The position numbers and the translations under genes were made by a program. Under the pieces are notes generated by a model. It was given only the letters and a program-made list of their open reading frames with translations. It had not been told where the DNA came from and ran no database searches. Shown piece by piece: positions 1-38,330 of a stretch of 40,625 bases of DNA. Source of the stretch: a virus (Duplodnaviria > Heunggongvirae > Uroviricota > Caudoviricetes); the IMG/VR virus record IMGVR_UViG_2541047915_000011; one strand, written 5' to 3'. Each line of letters begins with the position of its first letter. Position 1 is the first letter of the stretch.

Positions 1-2148
1 TTACACCATACTGTTAACCTGGCCGGGTAATTCGCTAGCTGGAATACGAAAGGTATACCAGGCATAACGACAGCGTTTCCACAGGCTGGAGAAATGGAGA
101 TGATAAAGGCAATCTGCAATAATTTCGTTATCTGGATATAAAGACTCGGCAAAATGTGTCCAGCGCGCACTGAGTTTCATGTTAAACAGTTTTTCATCTT
201 CTTTGTTACCATACAGGCGCGACAAAGTAATCATTGCTTCGAGCGTACCTTTATTCGCTTCTTCTTGTACCTGTTGGAGGTGCAAATGAGCAAGTGAGAG
301 TTCTTTCACCTCAAAGATATTAAGTAAAAAAAGCCCCCATGCTTTTTCATGTCCAGCTTCATGAGCCAGAAATAAATTGTCAAGGAGATTTTTTTCATAA
401 ATAGCCCGTGTTTCTTTAGAAATTTCTTGTTTATTTAGTGCCTGGTAGCAGATAGCAATGCTAAAATAAATATTTTGTAGATCTTGTTGATGTTCGCTAT
501 AACCATAATTTTTTACCAGTGGATAAGATACCGAGCTATGGAAATTTAGGTCATCTTGAAGTATTTTAAGTGCCCGTCGAAAATACTCCAAAGCTGTAGA
601 TGGTTCATAAGGTAATTTTGTATTGTCTTCCTTATCCAAATATTCAAGAGCAACTAAATTTAATGCGGCAGGAATATTTCTTTGCTTACCAATTGTCGCA
701 AGCGGAATGAAATAATCAGAAAGGTCAAACCAACTCAAATCTTTTATTGCCGACCGCCAATTATGATTGTATTTAATGTCACTAGTTTTTTCCAGCCAAG
801 CATCGCCCTGCCCTTCATCTTTTTCAAAACCCAAAATACCCTCTCGCTGGAAAAACCCCCTATAAATAACAGGTGTAGCATAAGTTGTATTCTGTGAATT
901 TTGGCAGATAAAATTATATATCCAGAATGAATCTGGATAATAACTTAATGCAAATTTTATCGCGTACGCAGTGTAATAATTATTGAGCTTCATGTCTTCC
1001 ATCACCGCTCGCTGTATACAGCACCACAACTTATCGTGATCGTTCTGCTTGTTATAGCAGGCAAGTAACCACTCTAGGGCATTATGGCGACATTCCTGAA
1101 ATTGTGCGTACTGAGCAATATTCTCTGCTAAGTCGATTGCATATTGTTGCTCCTCGGGCGCAATGTCCTCAATGCTGACATCTCGGTAATCATCCCACCA
1201 AAGTAAGAGATCCATATAGTCATGTTCTTCGGTAGATAAGTGCTTACAGGTTACTGAATCCAGCAATTCGGAAATTTCTTTATGCGACCCTCCCCAGCGT
1301 GGCATTCGAAATGGTATATATTCAACAAAAGGATAAAAAGTGTGAGGAAAAATAGTCAGGCAAACAGAAAGCCAATATTTTTGCCCACCATCATCATCAT
1401 ACTCAGGAAGTATATTGGGGCGAGGCAAAACGGGGCATATTGCATGCTCAAACGAAAGTCCGGAATACGCCATCAACGCTTCCACTTCTTGCGGGGAGCG
1501 GCGGTGATAATTTTTCAGTGCGATCATTAATGGTATTCCTGCGACACTATCACCGTTAAGGTGTGCCGCCAGCCAGGCTGGCTGACCAAATACTTTTGAG
1601 TTGGTGCTGGTAAGTAATGCAGCCATCCATTGTCGTGGGTCACAATCAATTGCTTTAAGTGTAGCGATGACCATTTGTTCATTACATGCACCAGCACAAA
1701 GCCACATTGCATGTGTGGTATCATTTGCCCAGCCATAACTGCGATATAACCATGCACGGTGATTCCAGTATTGTGCTTCGGCAAGCCAGGCATGTGTAGA
1801 ATGAGGTCTTGCTTGCTGCCAGGTTTTAATGAGTCTTAAACCTTCTGTTCCGGCATCAACTAGCGTGTTCATATCATAAAAATAGTTGCACATTTGGGTC
1901 CAGGATAAAAAATAGCGCTTTTCAGCCTGACGAGAAGTGAAACTCTCCTGTAATACCTGGTTATAAATTTCATCTAGTTCCTGATAACGTTTTTCTTGTA
2001 ACATATAAGGAATATTTGCGATTTGCCATTTTCTCTCAAGAGTATTAAGTGGCATTTTTTGGTCACACATCTTTTGCATTGCACTGAGTAAACGAGCATC
2101 CTGTTCCATAGATATCCTTTTAATTAGGTTCAAAAATTTTAAATTCAT
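1..2148 (-). CDS. Hypothetical large protein (715 aa by longest ORF; an internal ATG at about 2109 with an AAGGA Shine-Dalgarno would give about 702 aa). Trp-rich N-terminal region, TPR/Sel1-like helical repeats in the C-terminal third. Distal gene of a 3-gene operon.
   Basis: Complete ORF with stop at 1-3. Overlaps or abuts the upstream 238-aa gene. AT-rich relative to yegQ. No family assigned from sequence alone. Confidence 0.6.
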   Translation of the reverse strand: MNLKFLNLIKRISMEQDARLLSAMQKMCDQKMPLNTLERKWQIANIPYMLQEKRYQELDEIYNQVLQESFTSRQAEKRYFLSWTQMCNYFYDMNTLVDAGTEGLRLIKTWQQARPHSTHAWLAEAQYWNHRAWLYRSYGWANDTTHAMWLCAGACNEQMVIATLKAIDCDPRQWMAALLTSTNSKVFGQPAWLAAHLNGDSVAGIPLMIALKNYHRRSPQEVEALMAYSGLSFEHAICPVLPRPNILPEYDDDGGQKYWLSVCLTIFPHTFYPFVEYIPFRMPRWGGSHKEISELLDSVTCKHLSTEEHDYMDLLLWWDDYRDVSIEDIAPEEQQYAIDLAENIAQYAQFQECRHNALEWLLACYNKQNDHDKLWCCIQRAVMEDMKLNNYYTAYAIKFALSYYPDSFWIYNFICQNSQNTTYATPVIYRGFFQREGILGFEKDEGQGDAWLEKTSDIKYNHNWRSAIKDLSWFDLSDYFIPLATIGKQRNIPAALNLVALEYLDKEDNTKLPYEPSTALEYFRRALKILQDDLNFHSSVSYPLVKNYGYSEHQQDLQNIYFSIAICYQALNKQEISKETRAIYEKNLLDNLFLAHEAGHEKAWGLFLLNIFEVKELSLAHLHLQQVQEEANKGTLEAMITLSRLYGNKEDEKLFNMKLSARWTHFAESLYPDNEIIADCLYHLHFSSLWKRCRYAWYTFRIPASELPGQVNSMV

Positions 2149-2836
2149 TCCACGGCAATTTTTTCCAGTTACTGGATGGATCTTTCAACCATGCAGTGAC
2201 TTCCTTTAAATCACGGTTCGCAGTGGCGACGGGGGTATCGTATATCATTAACCATTTTTGTCGGGCGCGAACATAAGCACTGGCATAATCTTCCCATGAA
2301 GCGAAACAATCTTGTGCTCTTTGAGCATTCAGTAATAACACTATCCAGGCCTGGTTTTCATCGCACCAGCCTAAACCGGCGATGCAACGAGTTAAAAAAG
2401 CAGTGCGCATACAGTCAAACGCCAGCCCATCCAGAACCTGGCCTTGTGCTGCCAGTTGTTCGTAAAAATCATGTGGAGAATTACCAAGCCCTGTAGCCCA
2501 GCGCTGTAATATAACGCCAATTTGTTGACGGAAATCTTCGTTGCTTTGGTAAGTTTCTGTTCCTAGCTCTTGTTTAACCTGTAGTGCAAGTTGTTGACGC
2601 TTATCATCAGTCAACTTTAAATCTAACGTGAAGCCATTTACTGACAGTCCATTACGACGAGCAACTATATCACCAATTGCTAATGCCCACTTACGTCTCT
2701 TTGTTGCTCGTCTTTTGTCCTTGATTAGATCCTTTTCTTTTTCTTTAGCAATAAAAGCATCGATTTGTGGTTTGTTTTTTTTGTATCTATAGATAAAAAT
2801 AAATATTGCGACCAGGAGAACAATGATAAGACTCAT
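2120..2836 (-). CDS. Hypothetical protein, 238 aa, with N-terminal hydrophobic signal-anchor/TM segment (LIIVLLVAIFIFIY) followed by a basic stretch
   Basis: ORF track. Start overlaps the stop of the upstream 404-aa gene (TAATG-type overlap at 2834-2838), suggesting translational coupling. Confidence 0.6.
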   Translation of the reverse strand: MSLIIVLLVAIFIFIYRYKKNKPQIDAFIAKEKEKDLIKDKRRATKRRKWALAIGDIVARRNGLSVNGFTLDLKLTDDKRQQLALQVKQELGTETYQSNEDFRQQIGVILQRWATGLGNSPHDFYEQLAAQGQVLDGLAFDCMRTAFLTRCIAGLGWCDENQAWIVLLLNAQRAQDCFASWEDYASAYVRARQKWLMIYDTPVATANRDLKEVTAWLKDPSSNWKKLPWNEFKIFEPN

Positions 2837-4050
2837 TATTTTTCAACCTCTGACAGGGGTAAGTAATGAGATGTCTGTAATGTCAAACTCTCTATCTCAA
2901 AGGAAATGTTGCTGATATTTTGACCTGCAAATTGCGGATGCCACTCAGCGCCAGGGAATAACATTTCCGCAGAAGTAGCAACTATAGGGTCAATAGCATT
3001 AAGATAATGTAACTTATCAGGTGCGCTGTGTAACAGTAACCACTGCAACTCCACTGAAGGATTTGTAAAATGTTCTAATAAATGAAAGTTATTATGTAGT
3101 ACGCTTAGTAAAAAACTGGTTTCGTATACTTCCGTTGCATATTTCCACCCCTGATATTCAGGTGTATTTTCATAAACAATACCCATACCTTCACAATCAC
3201 TATGTCGAACTGCTTGTGGTGATAATAGTTGCAAAAGAGACAAAACATCGTCCGCATATTTTTTAACTGGATGACGATTTTGCTTACCTTTTATTTGATC
3301 AATTTCAAGTGAATCACCAACAACATTGAGAGCAATAGTAACATGAGGAATATTATTATTATCACGCAAACTGAATAACCGTAATTTATGTTGCTCAATT
3401 TGATTTGCATAATACTCACCATAACCACCGGTAAGATTTTTTCGATCATCAAACTGGCCTACGCAATGTTGCATATGCCATGATTCATAAGCCATTTCAC
3501 GACGAAGGTTCGAATGACTGGCATCAAACTCAACAATTTTTCCGTCTGGCACATCAAGTATTGACTTTACAGTATTTTGTTCACTCGGCTGCCACCCTTT
3601 CTCGCGTCGTTGAAGCATCTTTTCATGCTCTTCTTCACGCATTCTGAACGCAACGTAGCAGGTTATGCGCTGTAGTTTTGATTCCAGACGGGTACCACAT
3701 TTCCTGGAAAGAAATTCCACCAACTCCCGTTCTTTGGTTAATATTTGTTGATGATCGGTTTCGATATAATAAAGTGTCGCAGTTGATACTGAGGCAGTAT
3801 TAAACTTCGATACCAGCCATTCCGGGATTACATCATCATTTTTATTAAACAGTGAATATTCTGCAAGCGAGTTAATTTGTTGCACCATTGGAAAGTCACT
3901 AATTAGCCATCGATAAAAATGGTTGAGTAACCATTTTTGGATGGTCTCATTATCCTGGCGAAACAGACTTCTTTGCAAAATTGCTGTTTTTACTTCCGGG
4001 GCATTAATTACATCCCTTGCATTATAATTCTGGTGAATATTTCCAGTCAT
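2836..4050 (-). CDS. Hypothetical protein, 404 aa, first gene of the 3-gene operon
   Basis: ORF track. Preceded by a 487-bp AT-rich intergenic region (4051-4537). Contains an HCVGQF...GGYGEYY segment. No confident family call. Confidence 0.6.
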   Translation of the reverse strand: MTGNIHQNYNARDVINAPEVKTAILQRSLFRQDNETIQKWLLNHFYRWLISDFPMVQQINSLAEYSLFNKNDDVIPEWLVSKFNTASVSTATLYYIETDHQQILTKERELVEFLSRKCGTRLESKLQRITCYVAFRMREEEHEKMLQRREKGWQPSEQNTVKSILDVPDGKIVEFDASHSNLRREMAYESWHMQHCVGQFDDRKNLTGGYGEYYANQIEQHKLRLFSLRDNNNIPHVTIALNVVGDSLEIDQIKGKQNRHPVKKYADDVLSLLQLLSPQAVRHSDCEGMGIVYENTPEYQGWKYATEVYETSFLLSVLHNNFHLLEHFTNPSVELQWLLLHSAPDKLHYLNAIDPIVATSAEMLFPGAEWHPQFAGQNISNISFEIESLTLQTSHYLPLSEVEK

Positions 4051-4537: not shown

Positions 4538-5899
4538 ATGTTTAAACCGGAACTCCTTTCCCCGGCGGGAACGCTGAAAAATATGCGTTACGCTTTCGCT
4601 TATGGCGCAGATGCTGTTTATGCGGGCCAGCCGCGTTACTCCCTGCGTGTACGCAACAACGAATTCAACCACGAAAATCTTCAGCTCGGCATCAATGAAG
4701 CCCACGCGCTGGGGAAAAAGTTTTATGTCGTGGTCAACATTGCACCGCACAACGCCAAGCTGAAAACCTTTATCCGTGACCTGAAACCGGTGGTGGAAAT
4801 GGGGCCGGATGCGCTGATTATGTCCGATCCAGGGCTGATTATGCTGGTGCGTGAACACTTCCCGGAAATGCCAATCCACCTCTCGGTACAGGCTAACGCC
4901 GTAAACTGGGCGACGGTGAAATTCTGGCAGCAAATGGGTCTGACCCGCGTGATCCTCTCTCGCGAACTGTCACTGGAAGAGATTGAAGAGATCCGCAATC
5001 AGGTGCCGGATATGGAGATCGAAATCTTCGTTCACGGCGCGCTGTGCATGGCCTACTCCGGTCGCTGCCTGCTCTCTGGCTATATCAACAAGCGCGACCC
5101 GAACCAGGGCACCTGCACCAACGCCTGCCGCTGGGAGTACAATGTCCAGGAAGGGAAAGAAGATGACGTCGGCAACATCGTACACAAGTACGAGCCGATT
5201 CCGGTGCAAAATGTTGAGCCGACGCTGGGTATCGGCGCGCCAACCGACAAAGTGTTTATGATCGAAGAAGCCCAGCGTCCGGGCGAGTATATGACCGCGT
5301 TTGAAGATGAGCACGGCACTTACATCATGAACTCGAAAGATCTGCGCGCCATCGCCCATGTTGAACGCCTGACCAAAATGGGCGTGCATTCGCTGAAAAT
5401 CGAAGGCCGTACCAAATCTTTCTACTATTGCGCACGCACCGCGCAGGTTTACCGTAAAGCTATCGATGACGCCGCTGCGGGCAAACCGTTCGATACCAGC
5501 CTGCTGGAAACGCTGGAAGGTCTGGCGCATCGTGGCTATACCGAAGGTTTCCTGCGTCGTCATACCCACGACGATTATCAGAACTACGAATACGGTTATT
5601 CGGTTTCTGACCGCCAGCAGTTTGTTGGTGAGTTTACCGGTGAGCGCAAGGGGGAGCTCGCGGCGGTAGCGGTGAAAAATAAATTCTCCGTTGGCGACAG
5701 CCTTGAGCTGATGACGCCGCAAGGCAACATTAACTTTACCCTTGAGCATATGGAAAACGCCAAAGGTGAAGCGATGCCGGTCGCACCAGGCGATGGTTAT
5801 ACTGTGTGGCTCCCGGTGCCGCAGGATCTTGAGCTAAATTACGCGCTGCTGATGCGTAATTTCTCCGGGGAAACCACGCGTAACCCCCACGGTAAGTGA
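4538..5899 (+). CDS. yegQ: Peptidase U32 family protein YegQ (also called TrhP)
   Basis: 453-aa ORF whose sequence matches my recollection of E. coli YegQ over its length. Sits immediately upstream of CyaR as in E. coli. Confidence 0.9.
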   Translation: MFKPELLSPAGTLKNMRYAFAYGADAVYAGQPRYSLRVRNNEFNHENLQLGINEAHALGKKFYVVVNIAPHNAKLKTFIRDLKPVVEMGPDALIMSDPGLIMLVREHFPEMPIHLSVQANAVNWATVKFWQQMGLTRVILSRELSLEEIEEIRNQVPDMEIEIFVHGALCMAYSGRCLLSGYINKRDPNQGTCTNACRWEYNVQEGKEDDVGNIVHKYEPIPVQNVEPTLGIGAPTDKVFMIEEAQRPGEYMTAFEDEHGTYIMNSKDLRAIAHVERLTKMGVHSLKIEGRTKSFYYCARTAQVYRKAIDDAAAGKPFDTSLLETLEGLAHRGYTEGFLRRHTHDDYQNYEYGYSVSDRQQFVGEFTGERKGELAAVAVKNKFSVGDSLELMTPQGNINFTLEHMENAKGEAMPVAPGDGYTVWLPVPQDLELNYALLMRNFSGETTRNPHGK

Positions 5900-5939: not shown

Positions 5940-5983
5940 ACCGATCACATACAGCTGCATTTATTAAGGTTATCATCCGTTTC
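5940..5983 (+). promoter_or_regulatory. Putative cyaR promoter region (CRP-dependent in E. coli)
   Basis: TATCAT -10-like hexamer at about 5971-5976, about 7 nt before the sRNA 5' end, and a TCACA half-site upstream. CyaR is known to be CRP-activated. Position inferred, not verified. Confidence 0.3.
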
Positions 5984-6070
5984 GCTGAAAAACATAACCC
6001 ATAAAATGCTAGCTGTACCAGGAACCACCTCCTTAGCCTGTGTAATCTCCCTTACACGGGCTTATTTTTT
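5984..6070 (+). ncRNA. cyaR: CyaR (RyeE) Hfq-dependent small RNA
   Basis: Sequence GCTGAAAAACATAACCC...ACCTCCTTAGCC...CCCTTACACGGGCTTATTTTTT matches my recollection of E. coli CyaR, including the CCUCCU seed and an intrinsic terminator. Lies between yegQ and ogr as in E. coli K-12. Confidence 0.7.
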
Positions 6071-6078
6071 ATGCATAA
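6044..6078. repeat. 35-bp direct repeat, copy 1 (prophage att core, ogr-proximal junction)
   Basis: AATCTCCCTTACACGGGCTTATTTTTTATGCATAA is identical to 39953-39987. Overlaps the CyaR terminator. Confidence 0.75.
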
Positions 6079-6133
6079 TCAATTGAAATAAAAGGATTTA
6101 TTTCTGGTCACGTCCACACATTGACCACATCGA

Positions 6134-6167
6134 CAAAAAAGCCCCTCGACTGAGGGGCTTTCTGTTT
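6134..6167. terminator. Bidirectional intrinsic terminator downstream of ogr
   Basis: A-run, GCCCCTC / GAGGGGC stem with GACT loop, then TTTCTGTTT. The A-run gives the U-tract for the minus-strand ogr transcript. Confidence 0.6.
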
Positions 6168-6171
6168 GTAA

Positions 6172-6390
6172 TTACATCCACATAATTTGCTGCCCTGACG
6201 GCAACGGGTGCGGCCTCACGGCGTGGACTTCTCCCGGCTTCACGATGTATCGCTGTACCGACTCATAAGTGATGAACGTGGCGCTGCAATTCACGTTCTG
6301 ACACTGGTGATAACGCTCTTTTGTCATGTCAGTGATATAGCGACTTGTACGCGCATGTGCGGCATGCTGGCATAAAGGACAATGAAACAT
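6172..6390 (-). CDS. ogr: Ogr, zinc-finger late-gene transcription activator (72 aa)
   Basis: MFHCPLCQHAAHARTSRYI... matches P2 Ogr. Start set at the internal ATG (6388-6390), which has an AAGAGGTG Shine-Dalgarno. The ORF-track extension to 6453 is probably not translated. Confidence 0.9.
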   Translation of the reverse strand: MFHCPLCQHAAHARTSRYITDMTKERYHQCQNVNCSATFITYESVQRYIVKPGEVHAVRPHPLPSGQQIMWM

Positions 6391-13103: not shown

Positions 13104-13697
13104 TCAATTATGTAAATCTTTTGTTTTATGTTCTTTGGCGTGTTGTGACAACAAATGGCTATAGCGTTTAAGCAAAATATTAGAAAGATTAAGCTCATTC
13201 ATGAAGTGTTCTTCTAATAAGTAACCATCAATATCAACTTTAATATCATTACCACTTTTCATCTTCTGTAACGTAGATTTTACACGCTCCAGCAGGATGC
13301 TTTGCTCATGGTAATAGTCCATAAGAAGAGTAACATCCTCTTTATCAAGCTTACTTAATTCGCTGAAGTAGGATTTAAACACTTTATCAGTCTGGTTTAA
13401 TGCAATCTGTAAGCGAGGCCCCCCTAATGATTTGACATTAATGGCAAAAGGCTCGCCAACAAAATGCTCCGAATTTTCGTCAAAGCCAATATATCTCGTT
13501 TTATCAAGAAAAGTGAGAGCGCGATGGTTATTAGCGATTTCATATGCAAACATTGTTCTGATACTGTCCCTCTCAGCCTCCATGCTTATATCATCACGAT
13601 GATTTGTATAAAATATATTTCCAACAAAGAGAACCATAGCAAGAATCACTGAACTTGCCTCCCAGTTAATATTTTTTAATCGTCGCTTAGTAAACAT
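13104..13697 (-). CDS. Z/fun-locus protein, 197 aa, N-terminal signal-anchor/TM helix, function unknown
   Basis: AT-rich ORF in the variable slot between G and FI. AAGGTG Shine-Dalgarno about 5 nt before the ATG. Hydrophobic segment SSVILAMVLFVGNIFY near the N-terminus. Confidence 0.7.
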   Translation of the reverse strand: MFTKRRLKNINWEASSVILAMVLFVGNIFYTNHRDDISMEAERDSIRTMFAYEIANNHRALTFLDKTRYIGFDENSEHFVGEPFAINVKSLGGPRLQIALNQTDKVFKSYFSELSKLDKEDVTLLMDYYHEQSILLERVKSTLQKMKSGNDIKVDIDGYLLEEHFMNELNLSNILLKRYSHLLSQHAKEHKTKDLHN

Positions 13698-14449: not shown

Positions 14450-17209
14450 TTATACCTGCGCCACGTTATACCATGTCCCGTTAATGTATTTCTGAACCGG
14501 CCTGTAATATACACCACCAATGTTATCGGCAGAGTTTGAGCCGGTATCCTGAACAATAATGCCGGAATATACACACCCGGACGGTGCCTGATGTGTCCAT
14601 GTCATGCCATTGTTCGCAGGTTTGTATGTGGCAGCACCACCAAGCCGGATATCCCGGACATAGCGGGAATCAAAGTTACCGTAATCCGAGGGATTAACAC
14701 GCCCCGTAATATTTATGGTTTTATTACTTTGAATACTTCCCGAGACAAAGCGCATAATATGGACGCTATTAGCATAAACATCCAGATTACCATCACCATT
14801 TTGTTTAAAGCCCGTGTCATTATCACCCAAAACAATCGAATTACCGCCAAGAGCACTGGATGTTCCTATACCCAGAGCACCATTCAATTGACCACCAGAT
14901 AACGGCAGTGCACCGACATCTCCCGCTGTAGGTTTTCGCGTTGTGGTATAAAACTCAGACCAGTCAGCCTCGAATCCGTAACCGTCACGAGCAGAACGAT
15001 AAAAAATACCGCCGTTCTTATAATTAACGCGGAACTGGGCGGCGGGACAACTTCCTTCACCGATATTAAAATGAAGAATTAACGTTGATGCCCCACCAGT
15101 AGTTGCGTTATAGGCTCCGCTACTCCAGTTCCACCCAACGGCTTTATCATTCGCAACGGTGTCTCCTGTTTTTCCTGAAGCAAATGCACCAATATTTTTC
15201 GGCGTCAAGTTAATATCTGATGTTCCATCAAACGAAACGTTATTAATTTTACGGGCTGTTTTCAGCTTTGTTGCTGTCGCCGCATTGCCGGACAGTTCAC
15301 CAGAAAGGCCAGCACTGAATGTCTGTTTCGCGCCCCATGTCTGGGCTTCGTCAATGATTGGTACTCGTCTTGCTGTGATCGTGCGGCTTCCCGGATTTCC
15401 TGAAATACGCACCATAAAAAAGCGGTAGTTCGCTTTACTTACAGTGCTGCGCCATACATGCATTGAGCGCCCCGTACCGGAATCATCACTCGGACCAACT
15501 ACGATGTTTATCAGGTTGCCATCAATGACGCCCCAGTCCATACCGTCGGGAATGTTGGTCATGTTATCAAGCCGCACGGTTATCAGACTGCCCGGCACAA
15601 AATCGTAGGTCTGCCAGTCCAGACTGGATAGTTTTGCCACTGCGCCACCGATGCCCAGATTCAGAGGCAACGAAAAGGAGTTATATACTTCTCGCCATTC
15701 GGTCCATTTGCTCCCGGCGTAGACGCGCTCAAAAGTGCGTCCCTGTGTGGTTTCTGATTTCCCTGTGGTTGTGTAACGCTGCCAGACAGACACACCATCA
15801 AAACGTCTGATTACTTCCAGTATCCCAAGTAGTGTCGCGCCAACGGTGTCCAGCATCGGACCGTTTGTTGCCTTTCCTGTAACACTGTAAATACCGGGGT
15901 CGGTTAGAACATTTAAATCACCTTCGTAATAACGACTCTCTGACTGATGACCGACTCTTAACCACGGTTCCCACTGCGGATTTGATGCATCCCAGCTTGC
16001 CGCAAGACAGCGGACATACATATTTCCACGGCGAGTGGTATAACGTTGCGTTCTTCCATAATTTCCGCCTTCGAGGATCTCAAGCATCCCCTGAGCAAAG
16101 CCGCCTTCCTCTGGATAATTGCGTTCATATGAAGCTATAGCTGAGCTACTGTTACGCCATAAACCAAGATGCTCGGCGGCTCCAAGCGTATTCAGGTCTA
16201 TAGTCGTACTCAAAGGGCGGGTAGCAGATTGAGTGTGACGCCATACGCCCCACGGACCATCAGTGCCATTCCACTTATTGGCGAGTTTACGCATGTATAC
16301 ATTGCCGTCTCTCGTGGTAAAGCGTTGCGTACCTGCAAAATTGCCGGCAGCAAAAACCTCAAGCACACCGACAGCATTATCTTCCGGGAAATTTTTCTCC
16401 AGTGTTGCGTTGGTGGATGTTGCTTTAGACCAGATACCTGAATAAGCCTTAACAGGACCAAACGTATTCAGATCAGCATCAAGCGGCATTTCGCCATTGT
16501 TTTTCATAAACGTCAGGCTGGTAACGCCAACATTGTCCAGAAAAGCTGATTTATCCTGGATATCTGCACCGTTCTGATTTTTCGCCAGACGTGAATTTGC
16601 GTTGTCATTCGCAGCCTTGACCGCTTTTGGCGTTGCCGCCAGCTTTTCACTGGTGCTGTTTGTTGCACTGCTTAACTGAGTAAAACCTTTTTCTGTCAGC
16701 GTGGCGTCAGGATGGCGGCGGGACTGCTCATGCTCTGCGATTTTGTCATCGACGTAATCCTGCGTCGCCATCACTGTGCTGGCATCAATACTCAGCTCAA
16801 CGGACGCCACGTTGCTGAGAATAATAACCATGCGGCAGGTCTGCGCACGTCCGGAGCCTTCAGCCAGTTCTGGCTTATAGCTTTCTGCCATGTTGGATAC
16901 CGCAATCAGTGTTCCGGCATCGTCATACAGACCAAGCTCACGCATCCAGAAGCCGCCCACTTCTGGCGGAACAACCAGTTCAGCCACAATATAGTTTTTA
17001 TTCTTATTATCCACACTGACTTTATTCAGAGCGTGACGCCAGACCTCATGCACCAGTTTCGTCTGACCGGCATCCGGCACCGGTAATTTGCCATTACCGT
17101 CACCCACGGCCATTGCAGACAGGTTTACTTTTTTCCCGCCGGGGACAGTGGCGGCAGCCAGCTTTGCGGCTCCGGCAGTAGTGATAACGGTTTTAAATTT
17201 CGTGCTCAT
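14450..17209 (-). CDS. H: Tail fibre protein gpH (919 aa, longer than the 669 aa I recall for P2 H)
   Basis: N-terminus MSTKFKTVITTAGAAKLAAATV... is P2 H-like. Central region carries three tandem repeats of about 85 aa, each with a conserved QR(F/Y)TT core. C-terminal part has the tail-fibre motif SGNAATATKL. Confidence 0.9.
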   Translation of the reverse strand: MSTKFKTVITTAGAAKLAAATVPGGKKVNLSAMAVGDGNGKLPVPDAGQTKLVHEVWRHALNKVSVDNKNKNYIVAELVVPPEVGGFWMRELGLYDDAGTLIAVSNMAESYKPELAEGSGRAQTCRMVIILSNVASVELSIDASTVMATQDYVDDKIAEHEQSRRHPDATLTEKGFTQLSSATNSTSEKLAATPKAVKAANDNANSRLAKNQNGADIQDKSAFLDNVGVTSLTFMKNNGEMPLDADLNTFGPVKAYSGIWSKATSTNATLEKNFPEDNAVGVLEVFAAGNFAGTQRFTTRDGNVYMRKLANKWNGTDGPWGVWRHTQSATRPLSTTIDLNTLGAAEHLGLWRNSSSAIASYERNYPEEGGFAQGMLEILEGGNYGRTQRYTTRRGNMYVRCLAASWDASNPQWEPWLRVGHQSESRYYEGDLNVLTDPGIYSVTGKATNGPMLDTVGATLLGILEVIRRFDGVSVWQRYTTTGKSETTQGRTFERVYAGSKWTEWREVYNSFSLPLNLGIGGAVAKLSSLDWQTYDFVPGSLITVRLDNMTNIPDGMDWGVIDGNLINIVVGPSDDSGTGRSMHVWRSTVSKANYRFFMVRISGNPGSRTITARRVPIIDEAQTWGAKQTFSAGLSGELSGNAATATKLKTARKINNVSFDGTSDINLTPKNIGAFASGKTGDTVANDKAVGWNWSSGAYNATTGGASTLILHFNIGEGSCPAAQFRVNYKNGGIFYRSARDGYGFEADWSEFYTTTRKPTAGDVGALPLSGGQLNGALGIGTSSALGGNSIVLGDNDTGFKQNGDGNLDVYANSVHIMRFVSGSIQSNKTINITGRVNPSDYGNFDSRYVRDIRLGGAATYKPANNGMTWTHQAPSGCVYSGIIVQDTGSNSADNIGGVYYRPVQKYINGTWYNVAQV

Positions 17210-24042: not shown

Positions 24043-24780
24043 TTAACTGGCTTTCTTTTTCGGGCGTCCACGTTTTGCCGGTGTCGCACTCCGGGTCTTA
24101 CGCGGGGCGCGGGTGACCGCTTTTGGCTCCGGCTTCGGTTTCAGCTCCCGCTCCAGTCGTTCAATCTCTTTTTTGACGCCTGCCTGACAGTCGAGCTGTG
24201 TCGCACGTTGCAGGTGTGCCAGCGCACCTGCGGCATCACCACCGTCACGCAGAAACAGACCGGTGATTTTGTGCAGCTTTGCGCGCACTTCATCAGGCAT
24301 GTCAGCCGTGGCGGTCAGTTCAAGGGTGTCCGTCAGCAGGCGGGGATCCACAGACTCACCGGCAGCGTGAGCGCGCATGGCCGCAAGCGCCACCTCCTCG
24401 GTGAACATGTACGGCGGGGTGCGGCGGTGTTTACCCGGCATGGTCAGACCGTACTTCAGGGCATAACGGGCAATCTCCAGCGCACCGGCAATATCGCCGG
24501 TATCCAGACGCCACAGCATGACCGTCATCAGAATGTCATCCTGTGCACCTTTGCCCTGCTCCAGCACGCCGTTCACCCACGGCAACCAGAACGGCAGCAG
24601 TTCGCGTTTTTTCGCGGCCTTCAGCTCTTTTGAATAAATTGCTTTCAGTGTGCGCTGGTCTGCGGCGAGCTTAACCAGCATCTGCTCATAGACAGTTGCA
24701 TGTCGCAGCGGGGCGGCTTCCCGCTGCGCGGTCATCGCTGCCGAGACCCGCATCATGTGGCGCTGTGCGGGACTCGTCAT
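24043..24780 (-). CDS. M: Terminase endonuclease (small) subunit gpM
   Basis: 245 aa, P2 M position, basic C-terminal tail. Confidence 0.85.
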   Translation of the reverse strand: MTSPAQRHMMRVSAAMTAQREAAPLRHATVYEQMLVKLAADQRTLKAIYSKELKAAKKRELLPFWLPWVNGVLEQGKGAQDDILMTVMLWRLDTGDIAGALEIARYALKYGLTMPGKHRRTPPYMFTEEVALAAMRAHAAGESVDPRLLTDTLELTATADMPDEVRAKLHKITGLFLRDGGDAAGALAHLQRATQLDCQAGVKKEIERLERELKPKPEPKAVTRAPRKTRSATPAKRGRPKKKAS

Positions 24781-29867: not shown

Positions 29868-30485
29868 TTAACTCTCAACCTCAATAAAAATATTTTTGGG
29901 CCCATTACTAATCGATATACCGATTTCATCCAAAACAGCCATCATTTTTCTCTGATGAGTTTTATATTTATAGTCTTTATTTTCCTCTGTAATATGTGCA
30001 TTGGCTTCCTCAATAACACATTTGATTCTAGATATTATTTCTAGATAATCTCTCGAAACAGATATATCACCGCCTTGCGCTTCAGGGAACATAACCCTAT
30101 ACCATCTAAAAAAATTAACTTTCTCTGGATAGATGCTACTTCTTTTAGTTAACTCAGCACTTGCAAATTCTCTAAACATCGTCAGATGACTAGTGTAATT
30201 ACTATTATTATTATTTTTAACTCCAGCGTTATATGTCATCAAAGCAATCATAACACCAAAAACGGTAACAAAAGTTGTTATAAGCCATCCAAACGCCTGA
30301 AAATACATTACTATACCAGATGTTTTTTCCGCAAAAAATTTTAAGCACTGGCTATCGAAGCATATATCACGCTCATATAGCTTTTCATTCTGAATAGTTT
30401 CAAAAAGAGAAATTAGCGAAAAAATCAAAAAAAGAGCTGACGACACACCGACAATATATTTGAGAAGTCTAATATTTGCATTCAT
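29868..30485 (-). CDS. Small 2-TM membrane protein (205 aa), candidate effector partner of the adjacent reverse transcriptase
   Basis: ATG at 30483-30485 overlaps the RT stop (ATGA overlap). Hydrophobic helices at about residues 10-28 and 58-84. Strongly AT-rich. Confidence 0.7.
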   Translation of the reverse strand: MNANIRLLKYIVGVSSALFLIFSLISLFETIQNEKLYERDICFDSQCLKFFAEKTSGIVMYFQAFGWLITTFVTVFGVMIALMTYNAGVKNNNNSNYTSHLTMFREFASAELTKRSSIYPEKVNFFRWYRVMFPEAQGGDISVSRDYLEIISRIKCVIEEANAHITEENKDYKYKTHQRKMMAVLDEIGISISNGPKNIFIEVES

Positions 30486-31672
30486 AATGGTTTTAAAGAT
30501 GCCAATCTAGATTTAAAACACTCCAGTTTTTCTTTAAATGATTCAGAGCGAGTAAGAATAATCATCTTATATCTCGTCAAATCATATTTTCTTTTATACC
30601 AATGTTTATTTTGATTACCTTTCGAATACGACAACTCTAAACTTTTTATAGCTGCATCAATCACAGCAACATCTCTTTTAGATGGCATCGGTTTTATTGC
30701 CTGCAACTGTTTCTTGAATGATTCATATTTTTCATGCCCAACACGGCCAAGCTTATTCACTCTCCCCATACATCTATTGAATTCTTTTCTGTATGCAACA
30801 CTTGTTTTTGTGTTATTTTTTGCCGCCAGTAATTTCAAATTATGTATAGATGCCCTGATTCTTTTGACTTCATCGGATGGTAGTCGAGGTGAGTCATAGT
30901 CAACTCTTAAACCATGTACTTTTATAGGTTCAGATGAACAGTGAAATATTTTAGTTTTGTGCTTATTTATCGGCAAGTCATGCTCAGAAAGCATCCTCTC
31001 TATATGGCTTTGCATTTGAGAAAAATCATAATTACTTATTTTAGATGACACGGTAATATCATCTACCAAACGCGTATAAACAAGTCCTTTCCTCTGCGCA
31101 CGTCTTACCACATCCCCTTCAACAGCGAATAAACACAAAGTTGCTATATAGCTTGATGTTAAGGCCCCCTGTACGACAAAATCATCCTTAGTACATATAT
31201 CCACCAAGTATTCAAGAGCCTCATCCTTAATATGCAATATCTCCTCAAACACGCTCCTAACCAGATCTCTATGGATATTATCGAAAAAATTACTTATATC
31301 CACCTTGAGAACTGTTTTTGCTCCACAATGAGCCTTTGCACATGAAACATAGTCACGTTTGACATTAGAATTTAACACATCATTTTTACTGGGAACTGAA
31401 CCAAACAAAAATGAAGGAAAAACAACCAATTCCTTAAAGATACGTTTATTAATTCTACTCTGTAATAATCTCATTTTAGGATGCAGGGAGTAGACAATCC
31501 GTTTGCTTCCGTCAATTTTGGGAATTTCTTTTAGAGTATATTTCTCATCTAATGGTAATTCTGCAATAGCTTTAAGCTCTTCAACAGAAATCGATAAAGC
31601 CTTTGACAACTTTTCAAGTGTTGTGATAGGAGCATTGGATTTGCTGTATGGTTTAAATTTATCCATAAACAT
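30482..31672 (-). CDS. Reverse transcriptase, retron-like (UG/Abi-type not excluded). About 396 aa from the ATG at 31672; the ORF track extends to a TTG at 31756.
   Basis: RT motifs in order: IPKIDGSKRIV, CAKAH, VLKVDISNFFDNI, QGALTSSYIATL, LVYTRLVDDITV (catalytic DD), INKHKTKIF, IKVHGLRV, then a basic C-terminal domain of about 135 aa. Start is ambiguous; the upstream extension overlaps a structured inverted-repeat region. Confidence 0.8.
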   Translation of the reverse strand: MFMDKFKPYSKSNAPITTLEKLSKALSISVEELKAIAELPLDEKYTLKEIPKIDGSKRIVYSLHPKMRLLQSRINKRIFKELVVFPSFLFGSVPSKNDVLNSNVKRDYVSCAKAHCGAKTVLKVDISNFFDNIHRDLVRSVFEEILHIKDEALEYLVDICTKDDFVVQGALTSSYIATLCLFAVEGDVVRRAQRKGLVYTRLVDDITVSSKISNYDFSQMQSHIERMLSEHDLPINKHKTKIFHCSSEPIKVHGLRVDYDSPRLPSDEVKRIRASIHNLKLLAAKNNTKTSVAYRKEFNRCMGRVNKLGRVGHEKYESFKKQLQAIKPMPSKRDVAVIDAAIKSLELSYSKGNQNKHWYKRKYDLTRYKMIILTRSESFKEKLECFKSRLASLKPL

Positions 31673-31689
31673 ACCATTCAAATTCAAAG

Positions 31690-31820
31690 TTACGTACGGT
31701 CTTCCCATACTCAAGGGTGGAACAGCAGAGATGCTTACATCAACAATTGTCAGCAACAGCCTCTGCTATCTTTCGACCGTACGTAATGTCGTCGGCTACG
31801 GCACCATCGTAGTTGACGAC
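31690..31820 (-). repeat. Nested inverted repeats and hairpins in the RT leader (candidate structured RNA element)
   Basis: 12-bp perfect inverted repeat TTACGTACGGTC (31690-31701 and 31775-31786) enclosing a 7-bp inner repeat AGCAGAG/CTCTGCT. Adjacent hairpin at 31788-31820 with 13-bp imperfect stem GTCGTCGGCTACG / CGTAGTTGACGAC. Confidence 0.5.
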
Positions 31821-31997: not shown

Positions 31998-32016
31998 GTG
32001 CTTTCCCCGCCTCGCC
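31998..32016. other. cos cohesive-end sequence (P2 type)
   Basis: Minus strand reads GGCGAGGCGGGGAAAGCAC, matching the 19-nt P2 cohesive end as I recall it. Lies between the RT and gene A. Confidence 0.7.
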
Positions 32017-32588
32017 CGCCCGCTTCATGTGGCGGTTTTAATGCAGTTGCATAGATACTATGGATCCGCACCAGCTCTGACCGCAAGCAGCTGGAACGGG
32101 CATCCCCGACGCATGCAAAAACATTCACTTGTTGCATGCACGGCTTATTTAATGACAAATCAACTTAAGCGTCACCGAAGCTCCCACAAAAAAAACGTAA
32201 CGCCATGATTTTAGTGATATTTATGACTTTTTTAATTGCTTATTTAAGTCCGCCATATTGAAACCGTGCATTTTTTAGCCACCAATAACTTTAAAAAATT
32301 TACATTGCTTTCAATACCTTATCATCCGTAGTCCCTGCTTTTTACTTTGAGCTATATCAAAAAAAGCTCAAACATCCTTGATGCAAAACCAGTATTACAC
32401 AACATAAAATGCAACCAGAAACAACGACATACTATATGTTGTGTTGTTCAGGCTCTCTGTTCGGTGATATGCCAGATCACTTTGCGTTTAAACAGAGCAT
32501 TATTTCAGGGCAAGACTTCGCTAAATAGTAACTCCGCCTTAGAAGCGCATATATCGGCGGAAATTGCCCTCTGCTTACAGGAGGAGAT

Positions 32589-32699
32589 ATGAAGAAGTGC
32601 TATTACTGCATTCTCGTTCTGGCCCTCTTTGGCTATCCATATGGTAGTCCAAGTGGTTTGTCAGTAAACGTCAGTAATATCCATGTAAGTATTATTCTT
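32589..32699 (+). CDS. Possible small hydrophobic protein (36 aa, MKKCYYCILVLALFGYPYGSPSGLSVNVSNIHVSIIL)
   Basis: AGGAGG Shine-Dalgarno at 32579-32584, ATG at 32589, stop TAG directly before the bidirectional terminator. Below the ORF-track size cut-off. Expression unverified. Confidence 0.3.
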
Positions 32700-32713
32700 T
32701 AGTATGCTTCAAA

Positions 32714-32745
32714 CAAAAAAACCACCTGCCAGGGTGGTTTTTTTG
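32714..32745. terminator. Bidirectional intrinsic terminator (ends the A operon on the minus strand and the small ORF on the plus strand)
   Basis: A7 tract, AACCACC / GGTGGTT stem with TGCCAG loop, then T7 tract. Confidence 0.6.
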
Positions 32746-33004
32746 CGCCTGTCATCATTCCGATGAAAGACTAGCAAGACTTCGCTCGAGATGAATTATG
32801 CTTCGACAAAAGGTCACTCGCAATGGTTTTATTAGCCGAAATAGATGCTCTTTTATGACTCGAATCAAATAGCTGCCTTAAATTACATGCTAGCGATTCA
32901 ATACAATTTAGCCTTCTACTTCAGCATGCTATTGCTCCTCATCTGCCTTAGAGGCGCTTCGCATAATCCATTCAAAGGCATATAAAATCACGCTGCATTT
33001 TTAC

Positions 33005-35287
33005 TCAAATGGGTAACAAAAATCCAGGCCACTCATCAGCGACCTGATAATTGAAAGATTTCCCGTAATAATTTACGGTCGCGCCACGCGCCAGCGCCTC
33101 AAGCTCCCATCGCTGCGGCCTGATACCGTTCTGAGCAAGGTCAACGCGGATACGGGTAATTTGCATTCTTTCCGACCGGGTCAGTCTGGCCGATGGTGCA
33201 ATTTCATGTGGTTTTAACGGGCTTCCGTTTCTTTGCTGACGATTTGGTGTTCTCAGGTCGTGTTTTAATGCCCCCCTGAGCGCCCTCACGACCTCCGTGT
33301 CATTCCATTCGATAACACCGTCATCAACCAGATTAAGCACTGCTGCGGCGTGTTCAGAAGGTGTGGGAGCCGGTAACGAAGTATCACCACCGGTGAGCTT
33401 TCCACAGTTATTGACAGGACTCCGAGGCGCGGCGATGCCGCTTTTTAAAGTCAAAGGCTCAACGACCGGAACTTTCGGCACAATGCGCCAGTCCGTCGTT
33501 CTGGTGATATGAATATGACGCGCGCCGAGATGCGGCGCGTAAATGCCGACCACTCTCTCGACTTCTTCCTCGTACTCGTTAACGTCATCCGACGGGCTAC
33601 GGGCGACCCTGACAGTCTGACAATCGCGCGGGACATTTGCCCCGCCCTGCGCGCTGATATACAACGCAAAATCACCACTGTCTGCAGCGGCGCGTGCAGC
33701 CTCGACGCGCTCGTCAAACTCATCAGCAATGCTGACGCCGCGAGGCAATTTGCGTAGTTCACGGTAAGCCCCCATTGTCGGCAGACCAACCGTTTTAAAT
33801 TGCGGAATGCGCCACGTTGACGCCCATGCGGTAACAGCCGCTGCAGTATCTTTCAGCGGCCTGCCGGTATCGTTATCGAGCTGACCATCCAGTGCATAGC
33901 CGTCGATGTTTTTTGAAATGTATTTCGCGATATACCCCGCAGCACCGCCCCGGTTAAGATGTTTTGCCTGAAAACGGTTTCGCGCAGCTCCTCTTTCGTC
34001 GCCATCCTCTTTGAGCGCGTAGCGACGCATGATTTCAATAATCTGGTTACGCTGGCGTGGATTACAAAAAAGCATCATATGCCAGTGCGGCGTTCCGTCG
34101 TGGTGTGGCTCGACGACTCGCAAACCGTAGACCTGTAAATCATTATCCTTGAATGCCGTGCGCATCAGGCTCCAGATACGGCAGAGATATCGCTGCGCAT
34201 CCTTTGGATTAAATGCCTCATCATTCCAGCCGTGATTAAGCTGGACGGTTTTACTTTCGCCTTTTCCGACCTGACGTGTCGGGTGATACTTTGACGGCGC
34301 GGTCAGCGTGATAAACATCCCCACATCGCCCTCTGCGGCGGCGTAACGCTCAATACCGGCAATGGTGTTCATCAGCTCCATCCGGCGAATTTCAGGATTA
34401 GAAATACTGCCCATAACCTTACTGATAAGGTCGATGCGCTCGCCGGTTTCCCTGTTTTCAAGGTCACACGATTTAAGAAATTCCAGATTTGCCTGGCGGC
34501 GCGCACGCACATCACGAATGGCATGTTTACTGGCATAAGGAGAACGGTCTTTATTCACCTCCCCGACAGCAATCAGTAACGCCTCATGCCAGCGCATACG
34601 CTGGCCTTTAAGCTGACTAATCCACCACTCATCGTTAAACAGGCGGGCAATGGCAGAATATGCCTGCCTCGTGGTCATCTGTCCTTTACGGTATTTTTTC
34701 CAGAAAAGCGGGGAAATATTGAAAGCACGTGCAGCGCCAGCAACATGACCATACAGATGCGCCTGCGCCTCATCTGTAAACAGCGATTCTTTCTCGCCAT
34801 GTGCATCAACCCAGGCATCGCAGAGTTCCTCATACATCATGAAAAGCTGCGATGAAATACGGGCGGCAAACTTTTTCAGCTCCTTGTCATTCATCCCCGG
34901 CAGACGCGCATAATGGTCACGCTCTGCCAGAAACAGCAACGACGCGTCGGTGTTCATTTCATGGCGCTGATTCACGCGCTCAATACGCGGCCATAAACGG
35001 CGCTGAAAAGTGGATGTGAGGAAATAAAACCCGTGTAGCGGGCTTTTATTGCGCCGTATGTAGTCATAACGTGAAGTAAACAGCGAGCGCAAAAAGTAAG
35101 GCAGGCGGTTAATCGTGGATAAAACACCTTGCACCTGACGCATCTCGTCACGTGTAAGGGGTCTTTCGCGCCCGACAGCCTCGCGTGGCGTATTCCATGC
35201 ATAAGCACCGGTAAACGCCTTACCGGTGCCTGCGGCAAACGCAGACGGAGGTACGCAGGTGTATTGCTCCTGGAAAGAATGACTCAT
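33005..35287 (-). CDS. A: Replication initiation protein gpA (rolling-circle initiator)
   Basis: 760 aa, P2 A size and position. Start overlaps the stop of the upstream PP-loop gene. Confidence 0.9.
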   Translation of the reverse strand: MSHSFQEQYTCVPPSAFAAGTGKAFTGAYAWNTPREAVGRERPLTRDEMRQVQGVLSTINRLPYFLRSLFTSRYDYIRRNKSPLHGFYFLTSTFQRRLWPRIERVNQRHEMNTDASLLFLAERDHYARLPGMNDKELKKFAARISSQLFMMYEELCDAWVDAHGEKESLFTDEAQAHLYGHVAGAARAFNISPLFWKKYRKGQMTTRQAYSAIARLFNDEWWISQLKGQRMRWHEALLIAVGEVNKDRSPYASKHAIRDVRARRQANLEFLKSCDLENRETGERIDLISKVMGSISNPEIRRMELMNTIAGIERYAAAEGDVGMFITLTAPSKYHPTRQVGKGESKTVQLNHGWNDEAFNPKDAQRYLCRIWSLMRTAFKDNDLQVYGLRVVEPHHDGTPHWHMMLFCNPRQRNQIIEIMRRYALKEDGDERGAARNRFQAKHLNRGGAAGYIAKYISKNIDGYALDGQLDNDTGRPLKDTAAAVTAWASTWRIPQFKTVGLPTMGAYRELRKLPRGVSIADEFDERVEAARAAADSGDFALYISAQGGANVPRDCQTVRVARSPSDDVNEYEEEVERVVGIYAPHLGARHIHITRTTDWRIVPKVPVVEPLTLKSGIAAPRSPVNNCGKLTGGDTSLPAPTPSEHAAAVLNLVDDGVIEWNDTEVVRALRGALKHDLRTPNRQQRNGSPLKPHEIAPSARLTRSERMQITRIRVDLAQNGIRPQRWELEALARGATVNYYGKSFNYQVADEWPGFLLPI

Positions 35288-36291
35288 TCACATACACCGG
35301 CATAGACACTACTGCAAACGGCTTTATCATTCGCCGAAGCCAGTAAATCAAACTGAGTACCCCCACGCGTTGTCATTGTCCAGTCATGGTAGGTTTCAAT
35401 TCCGTATGCCTCGACTGTTACAACCTCAATACGACGTTCTGCGCGTAACGGATCATGTGTGGATGGGAAAAAAGTGGAATTTCCCCGACGGGAGCACGAC
35501 GCAACCAGTCGTTCCCATTCAGCAACCCGCTTTATTTCCTCCGGCCACCGGCGAAAAATTTCTGCCAGTTCAGATTTACGGACATGAATACATGGCATAC
35601 AACCAACACGGCCACACCCCTGCTGATATAACGGATTTGGCTTAATGTCATGTCTTCTGGCTATTGCAAATACATCTTCATGCTTCCAGTGCAAAATCGG
35701 GCGATATACATGCAATCCGGGGGTGTTGTCTGCATCCTCTTCCCAGACAGGTAAAGCTGCGCGTGATGGCGATTCCTGAGCACGCACTCCCTGCCAGCTA
35801 ATCACTTCCTCAAATTCATTGAGTAAAGGCAGGATTACCTGAGAACGCACGGGTTCATGTTTCAGTTCAAATGTGCAAAATCTGGCTTTGGTTGATGGGA
35901 AACGCCCCTTCCACAGACACAAATCAAGAAACGGGATACCCGTTGGTTTGAGAATTTCCAGCGCACAACTGATGCGCTGGTGCGCTTCTTCTTCCGACAT
36001 TCCACAATCGTTAACCAACAAATCAGGCCATTTGGTCTGGATAAACTTGCGCTTTGATTCAATCCGGCAGGAAAAATCAGCCCTGACCCTTTTAATTGGG
36101 CCAAGCCGTTTTTCCAGATAATCCAGATATTTCATTGTCTGTGGATGTTCATGTCCCGTATCAGCAAAAACCGGCAATATGGGTACATTTTCTTCAATAG
36201 CGACAAGCCACTGAGCAAGGCTGTCCTTTCCACCTGAAACAAAAATAACATTGATGGTATTTTCAGTATGGCAACGAGCATCAGTAATCAT
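35284..36291 (-). CDS. PAPS-reductase-like PP-loop ATP pyrophosphatase family protein (335 aa)
   Basis: PP-loop motif FVSGGKDS near the N-terminus and a C-terminal Cys cluster (CGRVGCMPC). 4-nt overlaps with orf83 upstream and A downstream. Confidence 0.75.
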   Translation of the reverse strand: MITDARCHTENTINVIFVSGGKDSLAQWLVAIEENVPILPVFADTGHEHPQTMKYLDYLEKRLGPIKRVRADFSCRIESKRKFIQTKWPDLLVNDCGMSEEEAHQRISCALEILKPTGIPFLDLCLWKGRFPSTKARFCTFELKHEPVRSQVILPLLNEFEEVISWQGVRAQESPSRAALPVWEEDADNTPGLHVYRPILHWKHEDVFAIARRHDIKPNPLYQQGCGRVGCMPCIHVRKSELAEIFRRWPEEIKRVAEWERLVASCSRRGNSTFFPSTHDPLRAERRIEVVTVEAYGIETYHDWTMTTRGGTQFDLLASANDKAVCSSVYAGVCE

Positions 36292-37877: not shown

Positions 37878-38068
37878 TTCCATACCCTCCGGCTTTTCAG
37901 AAAGGTCAGAGCCTTTTTTAACGGACTCTGTTTTTTGGTGCGGATAATGATTCCCTTACGCCCCTTACCGTGGGTGATGGTGAAGTCAATCGCCCTGGGG
38001 CTTTCGTTACGCAGTAACTGAGCAATACAACGAGGCTCATTCATACGGTTCTCCTTAACGTGGTTCAC
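37874..38068 (-). CDS. Small basic protein, P2 orf78-like (start uncertain)
   Basis: 64-aa ORF between cox and B. Overlaps the cox 3' end; a later internal Met may be the true start. Confidence 0.45.
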   Translation of the reverse strand: MNHVKENRMNEPRCIAQLLRNESPRAIDFTITHGKGRKGIIIRTKKQSPLKKALTFLKSRRVWK

Positions 38069-38330
38069 CGAGACCTAACCACATCAACCAGCCGTCACGA
38101 ATCTCTTTAGGGCGGCTTTCATAAGCCAGTTTTAGTCCGTTATTCCATGCCGGAAGGTATACCCAATATTCACCTGCACGACCTGAAGCTGATTGTGGAT
38201 CGGTCATATCAATTACAGGCAGCTTTCCTTTATCGATCATCCGACGAACCGCTCCTGTCGATTTTCCTATTAGTTTTGCGAACTCCTGATAAGGAATCGC
38301 ATCAGCCATGAGTGTTACTTGCTTGCTCAT
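38055..38330 (-). CDS. cox: Cox, excisionase and early-promoter regulator
   Basis: 91 aa, divergent from C, P2 Cox size. Confidence 0.8.
   Translation of the reverse strand: MSKQVTLMADAIPYQEFAKLIGKSTGAVRRMIDKGKLPVIDMTDPQSASGRAGEYWVYLPAWNNGLKLAYESRPKEIRDGWLMWLGLGEPR

Follow-up and report, generated by a model that had tools for sequence, protein, structure and literature searches.

A P2-type prophage integrated at the 3′ end of the cyaR small RNA gene, between yegQ and yegR

Phages that integrate into RNA genes follow a common logic, in which the attachment core contains the 3′ hairpin of the target gene and the phage copy of that hairpin restores it (PMC3448106, PMC3032704, PMC3603311, PMC3333887). 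The gene of the small RNA CyaR, also called RyeE, is one of the targets described. In fact, P2-type elements of diverse Escherichia coli strains have been listed with 'cyaR RNA' as their insertion site (Wphi2 in W, ogr-D′ in K-12 and P2*B in B; PMC3032704 Table 2), and ryeE of E. coli has been presented as 'previously known to be targeted by phages' (Bobay et al., PMC3603311, citing Wassarman et al. 2001). In K-12, CyaR is transcribed in a CRP-cAMP-dependent manner and its regulation of targets depends on Hfq (cited in PMC3333887). Additionally, a consensus, tgTGGaCa, is available for the arm-type sites of the integrase (PMC3448106), and the core and arm sites of P2 are already annotated in GenBank (AF063097). 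A literature search for reports linking cyaR or yegQ by name to attB or to a P2-type prophage returned no match.

Here, we describe the element carried by the window, that is, the whole stretch of 40,625 nucleotides that was analysed (IMG/VR record IMGVR_UViG_2541047915_000011). With a probability of about 95%, we read it as an intact P2-type prophage (genus Peduovirus) that occupies the classical preferred site of P2, overlapping the 3′ end of cyaR (ryeE) between yegQ and yegR. We take this site to be the locI of the P2 literature (Barreiro & Haggard-Ljungquist 1992; Yu et al. 1989), the preferred site of P2 in E. coli. What was observed comprises the anatomy of the element, the empty site and the attP junction, as well as recombination proteins identical to those of P2. 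The sequence-only reading of this DNA had pointed out that an sRNA gene, rather than a tRNA gene, serves here as attB, which is correct but not new, as cyaR/ryeE is a published target of P2-type elements (PMC3032704 Table 2; PMC3603311). The observation is accurate, sharply delimited and already known, and it contributes little that is new; the prophage illustrates, in textbook fashion, how a temperate phage can target the 3′ hairpin in the gene of a conserved structured RNA while bringing along a replacement copy of the hairpin, the host consequently keeping a working CyaR.

The limits of the prophage are given by AATCTCCCTTACACGGGCTTATTTTTTATGCATAA, a 35-mer found exactly twice in the window, both times on the + strand and without mismatches (Table 1). 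Identity breaks off sharply in the flanks at both ends of the repeat, and a repeat of this length is not expected by chance, as none of 100 shuffled sequences contained any match even when up to 3 mismatches were allowed. The span bounded by the two copies, from 6044 to 39987, measures 33.9 kb, and for annotation the boundaries of the prophage can be placed to the single base (on the left, 6044/6079; on the right, 39952/39987). The repeat opens with 27 bases, AATCTCCCTTACACGGGCTTATTTTTT, that are the reverse complement of positions 24356-24382 of the P2 record AF063097, where attP is annotated (the 'Int attP core' of the same record covers 24356-24383). The 27-bp attP core of P2, AAAAAATAAGCCCGTGTAAGGGAGATT, is thus found as its reverse complement at both prophage ends, at 6044-6070 and 39953-39979.

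Table 1. Features of the cyaR locus and of the prophage, with their positions in the window, followed by the 8 bp that stand to the right of the core in the alleles compared.
Feature	Position	Strand	Remarks
yegQ / trhP, upstream host gene	4538-5899	+	NCBIfam NF011996 TrhP, 876 bits against a cutoff of 534
CyaR (RyeE) sRNA gene	5982-6067	+	Rfam RF00112; transcript ends in the T-run 6062-6070
CyaR intrinsic terminator	6035-6070	+	11-bp stem AGCCTGTGTAA/TTACACGGGCT, loop TCTCCC, then TATTTTTT
attL common sequence	6044-6078	+	6044-6070, canonical 27-bp P2 core; 6071-6078, ATGCATAA, extra identity
IHF-binding region of P arm (predicted)	6069-6102		Ungapped correspondence with P2 protein_bind IHF 24324-24357
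P2-type prophage body	6079-39952		Collinear with P2 (AF063097) by blastn, 96-98% DNA identity, six segments replaced
P arm	6106-6133		P2 'Int P arm' 24293-24320; arm-type Int sites CGTCCACA at 6111-6118 and TGACCACA at 6122-6129
Terminator of ogr and F operon	6138-6161		P2 terminator 24265-24288; terminator scan match
ogr, late-gene activator	6172-6390	-	72/72 aa identical to P2 Ogr
cos, 19-nt cohesive end GTGCTTTCCCCGCCTCGCC	31998-32016		Identical to P2 cosL/cosR
cox, excisionase / directionality factor	38055-38330	-	91/91 aa identical to P2 Cox
C, immunity repressor	38445-38744	+	99/99 aa identical to P2 C
int, tyrosine integrase	38860-39873	+	337/337 aa identical to P2 Int; Pfam Int_N and Phage_integrase
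P′ arm, within the 3′ end of int	39839-39865		P2 'Int P′ arm' 24470-24496; TGTCCACA at 39846-39853 and 39857-39864
Cox-binding region (predicted)	39863-39936		Position inferred from P2 protein_bind Cox 24399-24472
attR common sequence	39953-39987	+	27-bp core at 39953-39979, then ATGCATAA; exact repeat
Degenerate P-arm relic, bacterial flank	39997-40026		CTGGTCAC, CGTCTTC, CATTGACCACATCGA; intact arm-type site TGACCACA at 40015-40022
yegR, downstream host gene	40308-40625	-	105-aa ORF; position as annotated yegR in ZJ3920 and K-12
8 bp right of core, window attL			ATGCATAA
8 bp right of core, host attB			ATGCATAA
8 bp right of core, P2 attP			ACGTACAA
8 bp right of core, P2_2H1, 10W and K-12 remnant			ACGCGTAA
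8 bp right of core, PSUO2 and FDAARGOS_1337 attL			ATGCGTAA

Between the repeats, the genes follow the order ogr-D-U-T-E-FII-FI ... H ... V-S-R-lys-K-Y-X-L-M-N-O / P-Q, cos, A, B, cox, C, int, which is reversed relative to the P2 record and permuted at att, as expected of an integrated P2. The lengths of the ORFs match those of the P2 genes; the full head, tail, lysis and replication set is present, with all the essential genes of P2 at full length, and cox and C form a divergent switch adjoining int, which is the P2 arrangement. The P arm, the IHF site, the Cox sites and the P′ arm annotated in P2 map onto the window without gaps, and each side of the core carries two direct arm-type sites that fit the consensus. 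The proposal that exact 35-bp att repeats bracket a complete prophage is therefore borne out, both by the two exact copies and by the collinearity with P2, the level of DNA identity, cos and the essential genes between them; the range 5984-6135, originally assigned to the integration feature, is also a fair one, as it comprises CyaR, the core and the IHF/P-arm region of the phage. As discussed below, a part of the '35-bp att' claim has to be modified.

Junctions of this kind are frequent. Using 5,426 complete E. coli genomes and requiring at least 80% probe coverage, an ogr-side (attL-type) junction at cyaR was found in 1,195 genomes (22%) and an int-side (attR-type) junction in 817 (15%), and the same arrangement is present in about one in six complete genomes. 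The surplus of attL-type junctions reflects remnants such as ogrK-D′ of K-12. Such remnants are thus common at this site, and it might be argued from the two counts, and from the one that K-12 holds, that the element in the window is likewise a decaying, immobile remnant whose repeats are only historical scars. This is very unlikely, as both att sites are perfect, cos is intact, every essential gene of P2 is there at full length and the Int, Cox, C and Ogr proteins show 100% identity to those of P2. The reading as an intact prophage is the one followed below.

The cyaR loci of GTDB species representatives were also scanned; these loci are 8 kb long, so that only the attL junctions are visible. 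P2-like attL junctions were found in Citrobacter youngae, Citrobacter sp. Awk 4, Enterobacter sp. UNJFSC 003, Enterobacteriaceae bacterium G50 and 'Bacterium BS0013'. They consist of a core and an IHF/P-arm-like sequence, joined by an ogr homologue (64-70% identity) in those loci that extend far enough. The prevalence in E. coli amounts to a heavy use of the cyaR site, and the attL junctions of other genera agree with it. In six loci of the other-genus group, that of C. youngae among them, the attL core has the local variant of the cyaR terminator, ACGCAGG instead of ACACGGG. In those genera, for which only the attL junctions are visible, the phage core might conceivably vary together with the terminator of the host.

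The sRNA gene itself is complete. The match to RF00112 covers the full length of the model (1-85/85) with 100.7 bits against a gathering score of 47 (E 3.9e-19), the gene lies downstream of yegQ, which is also annotated in the matching E. coli records, and it ends in a Rho-independent terminator. The terminator RNA, with the stem AGCCUGUGUAA/UUACACGGGCU, the loop UCUCCC and a U-tract, folds with -18.4 kcal/mol (z = -4.8), coincides with a terminator scan match at 6035-6062 and agrees with the consensus structure of Rfam. The repeat starts with the last 2 nt of the 5′ arm of this stem and, consequently, takes in the loop, the complete 3′ arm and the U-tract. It had been claimed that the copy near yegQ forms the terminator hairpin and U-tract of CyaR; Rfam and the fold confirm this in the sense that the copy supplies the loop, the 3′ arm and the U-tract, and the related claim that integration rebuilds the 3′ end of CyaR from the core brought by the phage is supported by the same three elements.

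Supporting the integrity of CyaR, positions 5977-6071 of the window are identical to K-12 and to ZJ3920, and the divergence from the empty site and from K-12 only starts past the U-tract, beyond the 3′ end of the transcript. CyaR is unchanged by integration because the crossover lies within sequence that is identical in phage and host. For annotation purposes, CyaR should be marked as intact, and the copy of the core at attR should not be called a second sRNA. We also considered that the core might double as the terminator of int at attR and attP, an idea that was dropped as the fold is weak (-9.7 kcal/mol, z = -1.5). On the other side of yegQ, positions 1-4050 of the window hold a host island on the minus strand that codes for DUF4034 (an ORF of 715 aa, which may be cut by the start of the window), DUF1266 and PcfJ-domain proteins. 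The same DUF1266 and PcfJ genes are found upstream of yegQ in ZJ3920; K-12 is without them, and there yegQ is preceded by baeR-yegP.

The comparison with a prophage-free yegQ-cyaR-yegR region, which the sequence-only reading had suggested as a check, gave a clear result. The left flank, one copy of the repeat and the right flank, joined as a synthetic empty site, match E. coli ZJ3920 at 100% over 526 bp, and at least 80% of this empty site is covered in 878 genomes. Furthermore, in genomes that lack the prophage, the match to the attL probe ends at 6078 and the match to the attR probe starts at 39953, so that both boundaries of the common sequence are defined by population data.

A second suggested check, the attP-type junctions of excised circles, has a comparative equivalent in the attP of phage genome records, as judged from their sequences. 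The predicted junction, made of the left side of attR, the core and the right side of attL, is present in P2, P2_2H1 and 10W, with 425-426 identities over 435 positions. The exact attP junction of the present prophage had no match in the IMG/VR scan, its exact core-to-P-arm allele had none in the IMG/VR contigs and its exact attP allele had no 100% match in the phage collection. As this allele is found in no phage record or IMG/VR contig, the attP of the present prophage is reconstructed rather than observed.

The few differences of P2, P2_2H1 and 10W from the predicted attP cluster in the 8 bp directly to the right of the 27-bp core (Table 1). In the P2 record, these 8 positions fall in the region annotated as IHF-protected, outside the Int core, and the seven bases that follow also vary among phage alleles (TCAATTG in the window versus TACAATG or TAAATTG). 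The allele of the window attL is present in only 9 of the 5,426 complete E. coli genomes, the O145:H28 strains RM12761 and RM13516 among them. In PSUO2, attL and attR are identical over only 29 bp, the attR reading ATACATAA.

These observations bear on the claim of a 35-bp att. The general recombination core is the known 27-28 bp of P2, and the 35-bp identity is one rare allele of a polymorphic patch, which happens to coincide with the host flank; the identity over 35 bp is real, while the last 8 bp are allele-specific and do not belong to the recombination core proper. An impression from megablast extents, that all 35 bp are common to phages P2_2H1, P24C9 and 10W, proved wrong when the sequences were read, as they have ACGCGTAA. 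It could still be proposed that the whole 35 bp is the functional core of a P2 lineage in which the core was enlarged. The equality of attL and attR over 35 bp would agree with this, and the extra 8 bp, when the TT ahead of them is included, make up a perfect 10-bp palindrome, TTATGCATAA; the allele that is commoner, TTACGCGTAA, is perfectly palindromic too, which could hint at constraint. Nevertheless, the Int of this prophage is 100% identical to P2 Int, for which the annotated core is 27-28 bp and the 8 bp are an IHF-protected region, and phages and prophages whose int regions are near-identical, but which have ACGTACAA, ACGCGTAA or ATGCGTAA in place of the 8 bp, occupy the same site. Considering, in addition, the 29-bp identity of PSUO2 and the rarity of the window allele, a functional core of 35 bp is extremely improbable.

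The palindromes are seen at 6068-6078 of the window and at the equivalent positions of P2_2H1, 10W and K-12; the two alleles are two symmetric changes apart, and the version of P2, TTACGTACAA, is not palindromic. They could be due to chance or to a weak constraint in the IHF region.

A different possibility is that there was no pre-existing phage allele with these 8 bp, and that the extra identity is secondary, having arisen when gene conversion or mismatch repair acted between attL and attR, or when the incoming phage recombined with the host or with a relic. The fact that an attP with ATGCATAA-TCAATTG is found in no free-phage record or IMG/VR contig, the rarity of the allele and the existence of an intermediate, ATGCGTAA, in PSUO2 and FDAARGOS_1337 would fit this explanation. 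We regard it as unlikely, however. The bases past the 8 bp (TCAATTG) differ from the other phage alleles and do not agree with those of the host, which argues that the patch is simply hypervariable in phages, and the attR of PSUO2 does not have the reciprocal pattern. Moreover, the host flank resembles the decayed P arm of an older phage with ATGCATAA beside its core, so that the identity is accounted for just as well by a common origin of the allele. The hybrid ATGCGTAA of PSUO2 had also been considered as the mark of a crossover outside the 27 bp, in which case the reciprocal ACGCATAA would be expected in the PSUO2 attR; it was not found there, and the crossover is not mapped by this hybrid.

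The resemblance of the host flank to a P arm deserves a description of its own. To the right of attB, in occupied and empty sites, the host sequence consists of ATGCATAA, GCCCTATCC, CTGGTCAC, CGTCTTC and CATTGACCACATCGA. When it is aligned with the phage P arm from position 6104 (CTGGTCAC, GTCCACA, CATTGACCACATCGA), 25 of 32 positions are identical without gaps, and the score of the local alignment is 38, compared with 15.1 +/- 2.4 (maximum, 29) for dinucleotide shuffles, none of which reached 38 in 1000 trials. Compared with the phage, the flank lacks 16 bp of the IHF region. A probe containing this flank is matched by 5,410 of the 5,426 E. coli genomes, that is, by essentially all of them; Escherichia sp. 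E1V33 lacks the flank. On the simplest reading, the host flank to the right of attB would be the scar of an older P2-like prophage with ATGCATAA in its attP, the status of the segment as a relic being well supported by the alignment. This reading offers an explanation by descent for the 35-bp identity.

It is tempting to go further and to propose that the attB of cyaR is itself an old attL scar, that the terminator and the sequence downstream were supplied by a phage in ancient times and that the arm site might favour the preference of P2 for this location. This extension is speculative and, in our opinion, quite improbable; if it were true, P2's preferred location would have an attB that carries an arm-type site. 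In the scan of the GTDB species representatives, independent, truncated P-arm relics were also found beside cyaR in Escherichia albertii and in Salmonella enterica subsp. diarizonae, and these truncated relics are scars of older integrations at the same site. The locus of E. coli ECMA0423 also shows the P-arm relic in its flank.

The probable course of integration can be outlined from P2 biochemistry, from which the position of the exchange, the roles of IHF and Cox and any present-day activity of the prophage are deduced. The use of P2 biology for these steps is justified by the 100% identity of the proteins involved. The attP would consist of the core between the P arm and the P′ arm, each with two sites of the tgTGGaCa type, and the tyrosine recombinase Int, together with the IHF of the host, would bring it into synapsis with attB. 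Strand exchange would then take place inside the common 27-28 bp, at positions that a perfect identity of 35 bp does not allow to be read exactly. The resulting attL would join the bacterial 5′ part of cyaR to the core and to the IHF site, P arm and ogr of the phage, while attR would join the int end, the P′ arm and the Cox sites to the core and the bacterial flank. As the common sequence holds, in addition to the final 2 nt of the 5′ arm, the loop, the 3′ arm and the U-tract, attL would reconstitute an unchanged CyaR, and the core at attR would be a second copy of the terminator half, devoid of a promoter. Excision would be the reversal of this process by Int, IHF and Cox.

In the blastn comparison, six segments of the prophage have no counterpart in P2. 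Between the portal gene Q and cos, at 29868-31756 on the minus strand, there is a defence system of the retron Ec48 family, with a reverse transcriptase (an ORF of 424 aa; PADLOC RT_IV, 586 bits; Pfam RVT_1) and a 2TM effector of 205 aa (NCBIfam NF038235, 202 bits against a cutoff of 65). This cargo is 99.7% identical in Escherichia phage pro147. When msr/msd or other RNAs were searched for near the reverse transcriptase gene, using Rfam at relaxed thresholds, only chance-level matches were obtained. The old/tin position (32046-33020, about 1 kb) has no ORF of at least 70 aa except for one of 81 aa that starts with TTG; it includes a bidirectional terminator-like hairpin near 32713-32746, and sequences about 94% similar are found in Salmonella phage MET_P1_103_31 and in the 'Peduovirus P2' record OU784750.

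The Z/fun position is a known cargo hotspot of P2. In the window, Z/fun is replaced by an ORF of 197 aa (13104-13697, minus strand), between the tail-fibre assembly gene and the sheath gene, for which no Pfam, PADLOC or NCBIfam match was found. Relative to P2, a protein of 335 aa with a PAPS-reductase domain (35284-36291, minus strand; Pfam, 121 bits, with weak matches to SspD/BrxP/DndC-like proteins) is encoded between the replication gene A and the orf83 region. The tail-fibre gene H (14450-17209, minus strand) codes for 919 aa, versus 669 in P2, and its C-terminus is unrelated to that of P2; the segment 14505-16603 resembles P2 little or not at all, and the identity of the assembly gene G is just 77%. 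The divergence of H and G suggests that the receptor specificity is different.

The closest described system is P2 itself, with which the prophage shares identical Int, Cox, C and Ogr proteins and 27-bp core, the same arm sites and gene order and the same host site between yegQ and yegR. By contrast, the patch to the right of the core is ACGTACAA in P2 and ATGCATAA in the window, and the identity of the att sites extends over 27-28 bp in the former and 35 bp in the latter. The cargo is also different, as the window has a retron Ec48-type system beside cos, an ORF of 197 aa instead of Z/fun, an additional PAPS-reductase-domain gene and another tail-fibre C-terminus, while the old/tin segment of P2 is without a counterpart.

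The cryptic remnant ogrK-D′ of K-12 has the same attL, formed by cyaR, the 27-bp core, the P arm and ogr; it differs in that only ogr and a fragment of D are left, which a deletion has brought next to a truncated attR core (ACACGGGCTTATTTTTTT...) with the same right flank. Wphi2 of E. coli W and P2*B of E. coli B, which are likened to the present prophage by their listing in PMC3032704 Table 2, are P2-type elements at the same sRNA gene, in other strains and with other cargo. More distantly, the prophage may be compared with other elements found in the 3′ ends of RNA genes, such as the P2-type elements at rybB, SopEPhi/Fels-2 at ssrA, the phages of Salmonella at ryeB/sdsR and 186 at tRNA-Ile. 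The elements at rybB, ssrA, ryeB and tRNA-Ile differ from it in the target gene and, in the case of the 186-type phages, also in the arm-site class of the integrase.
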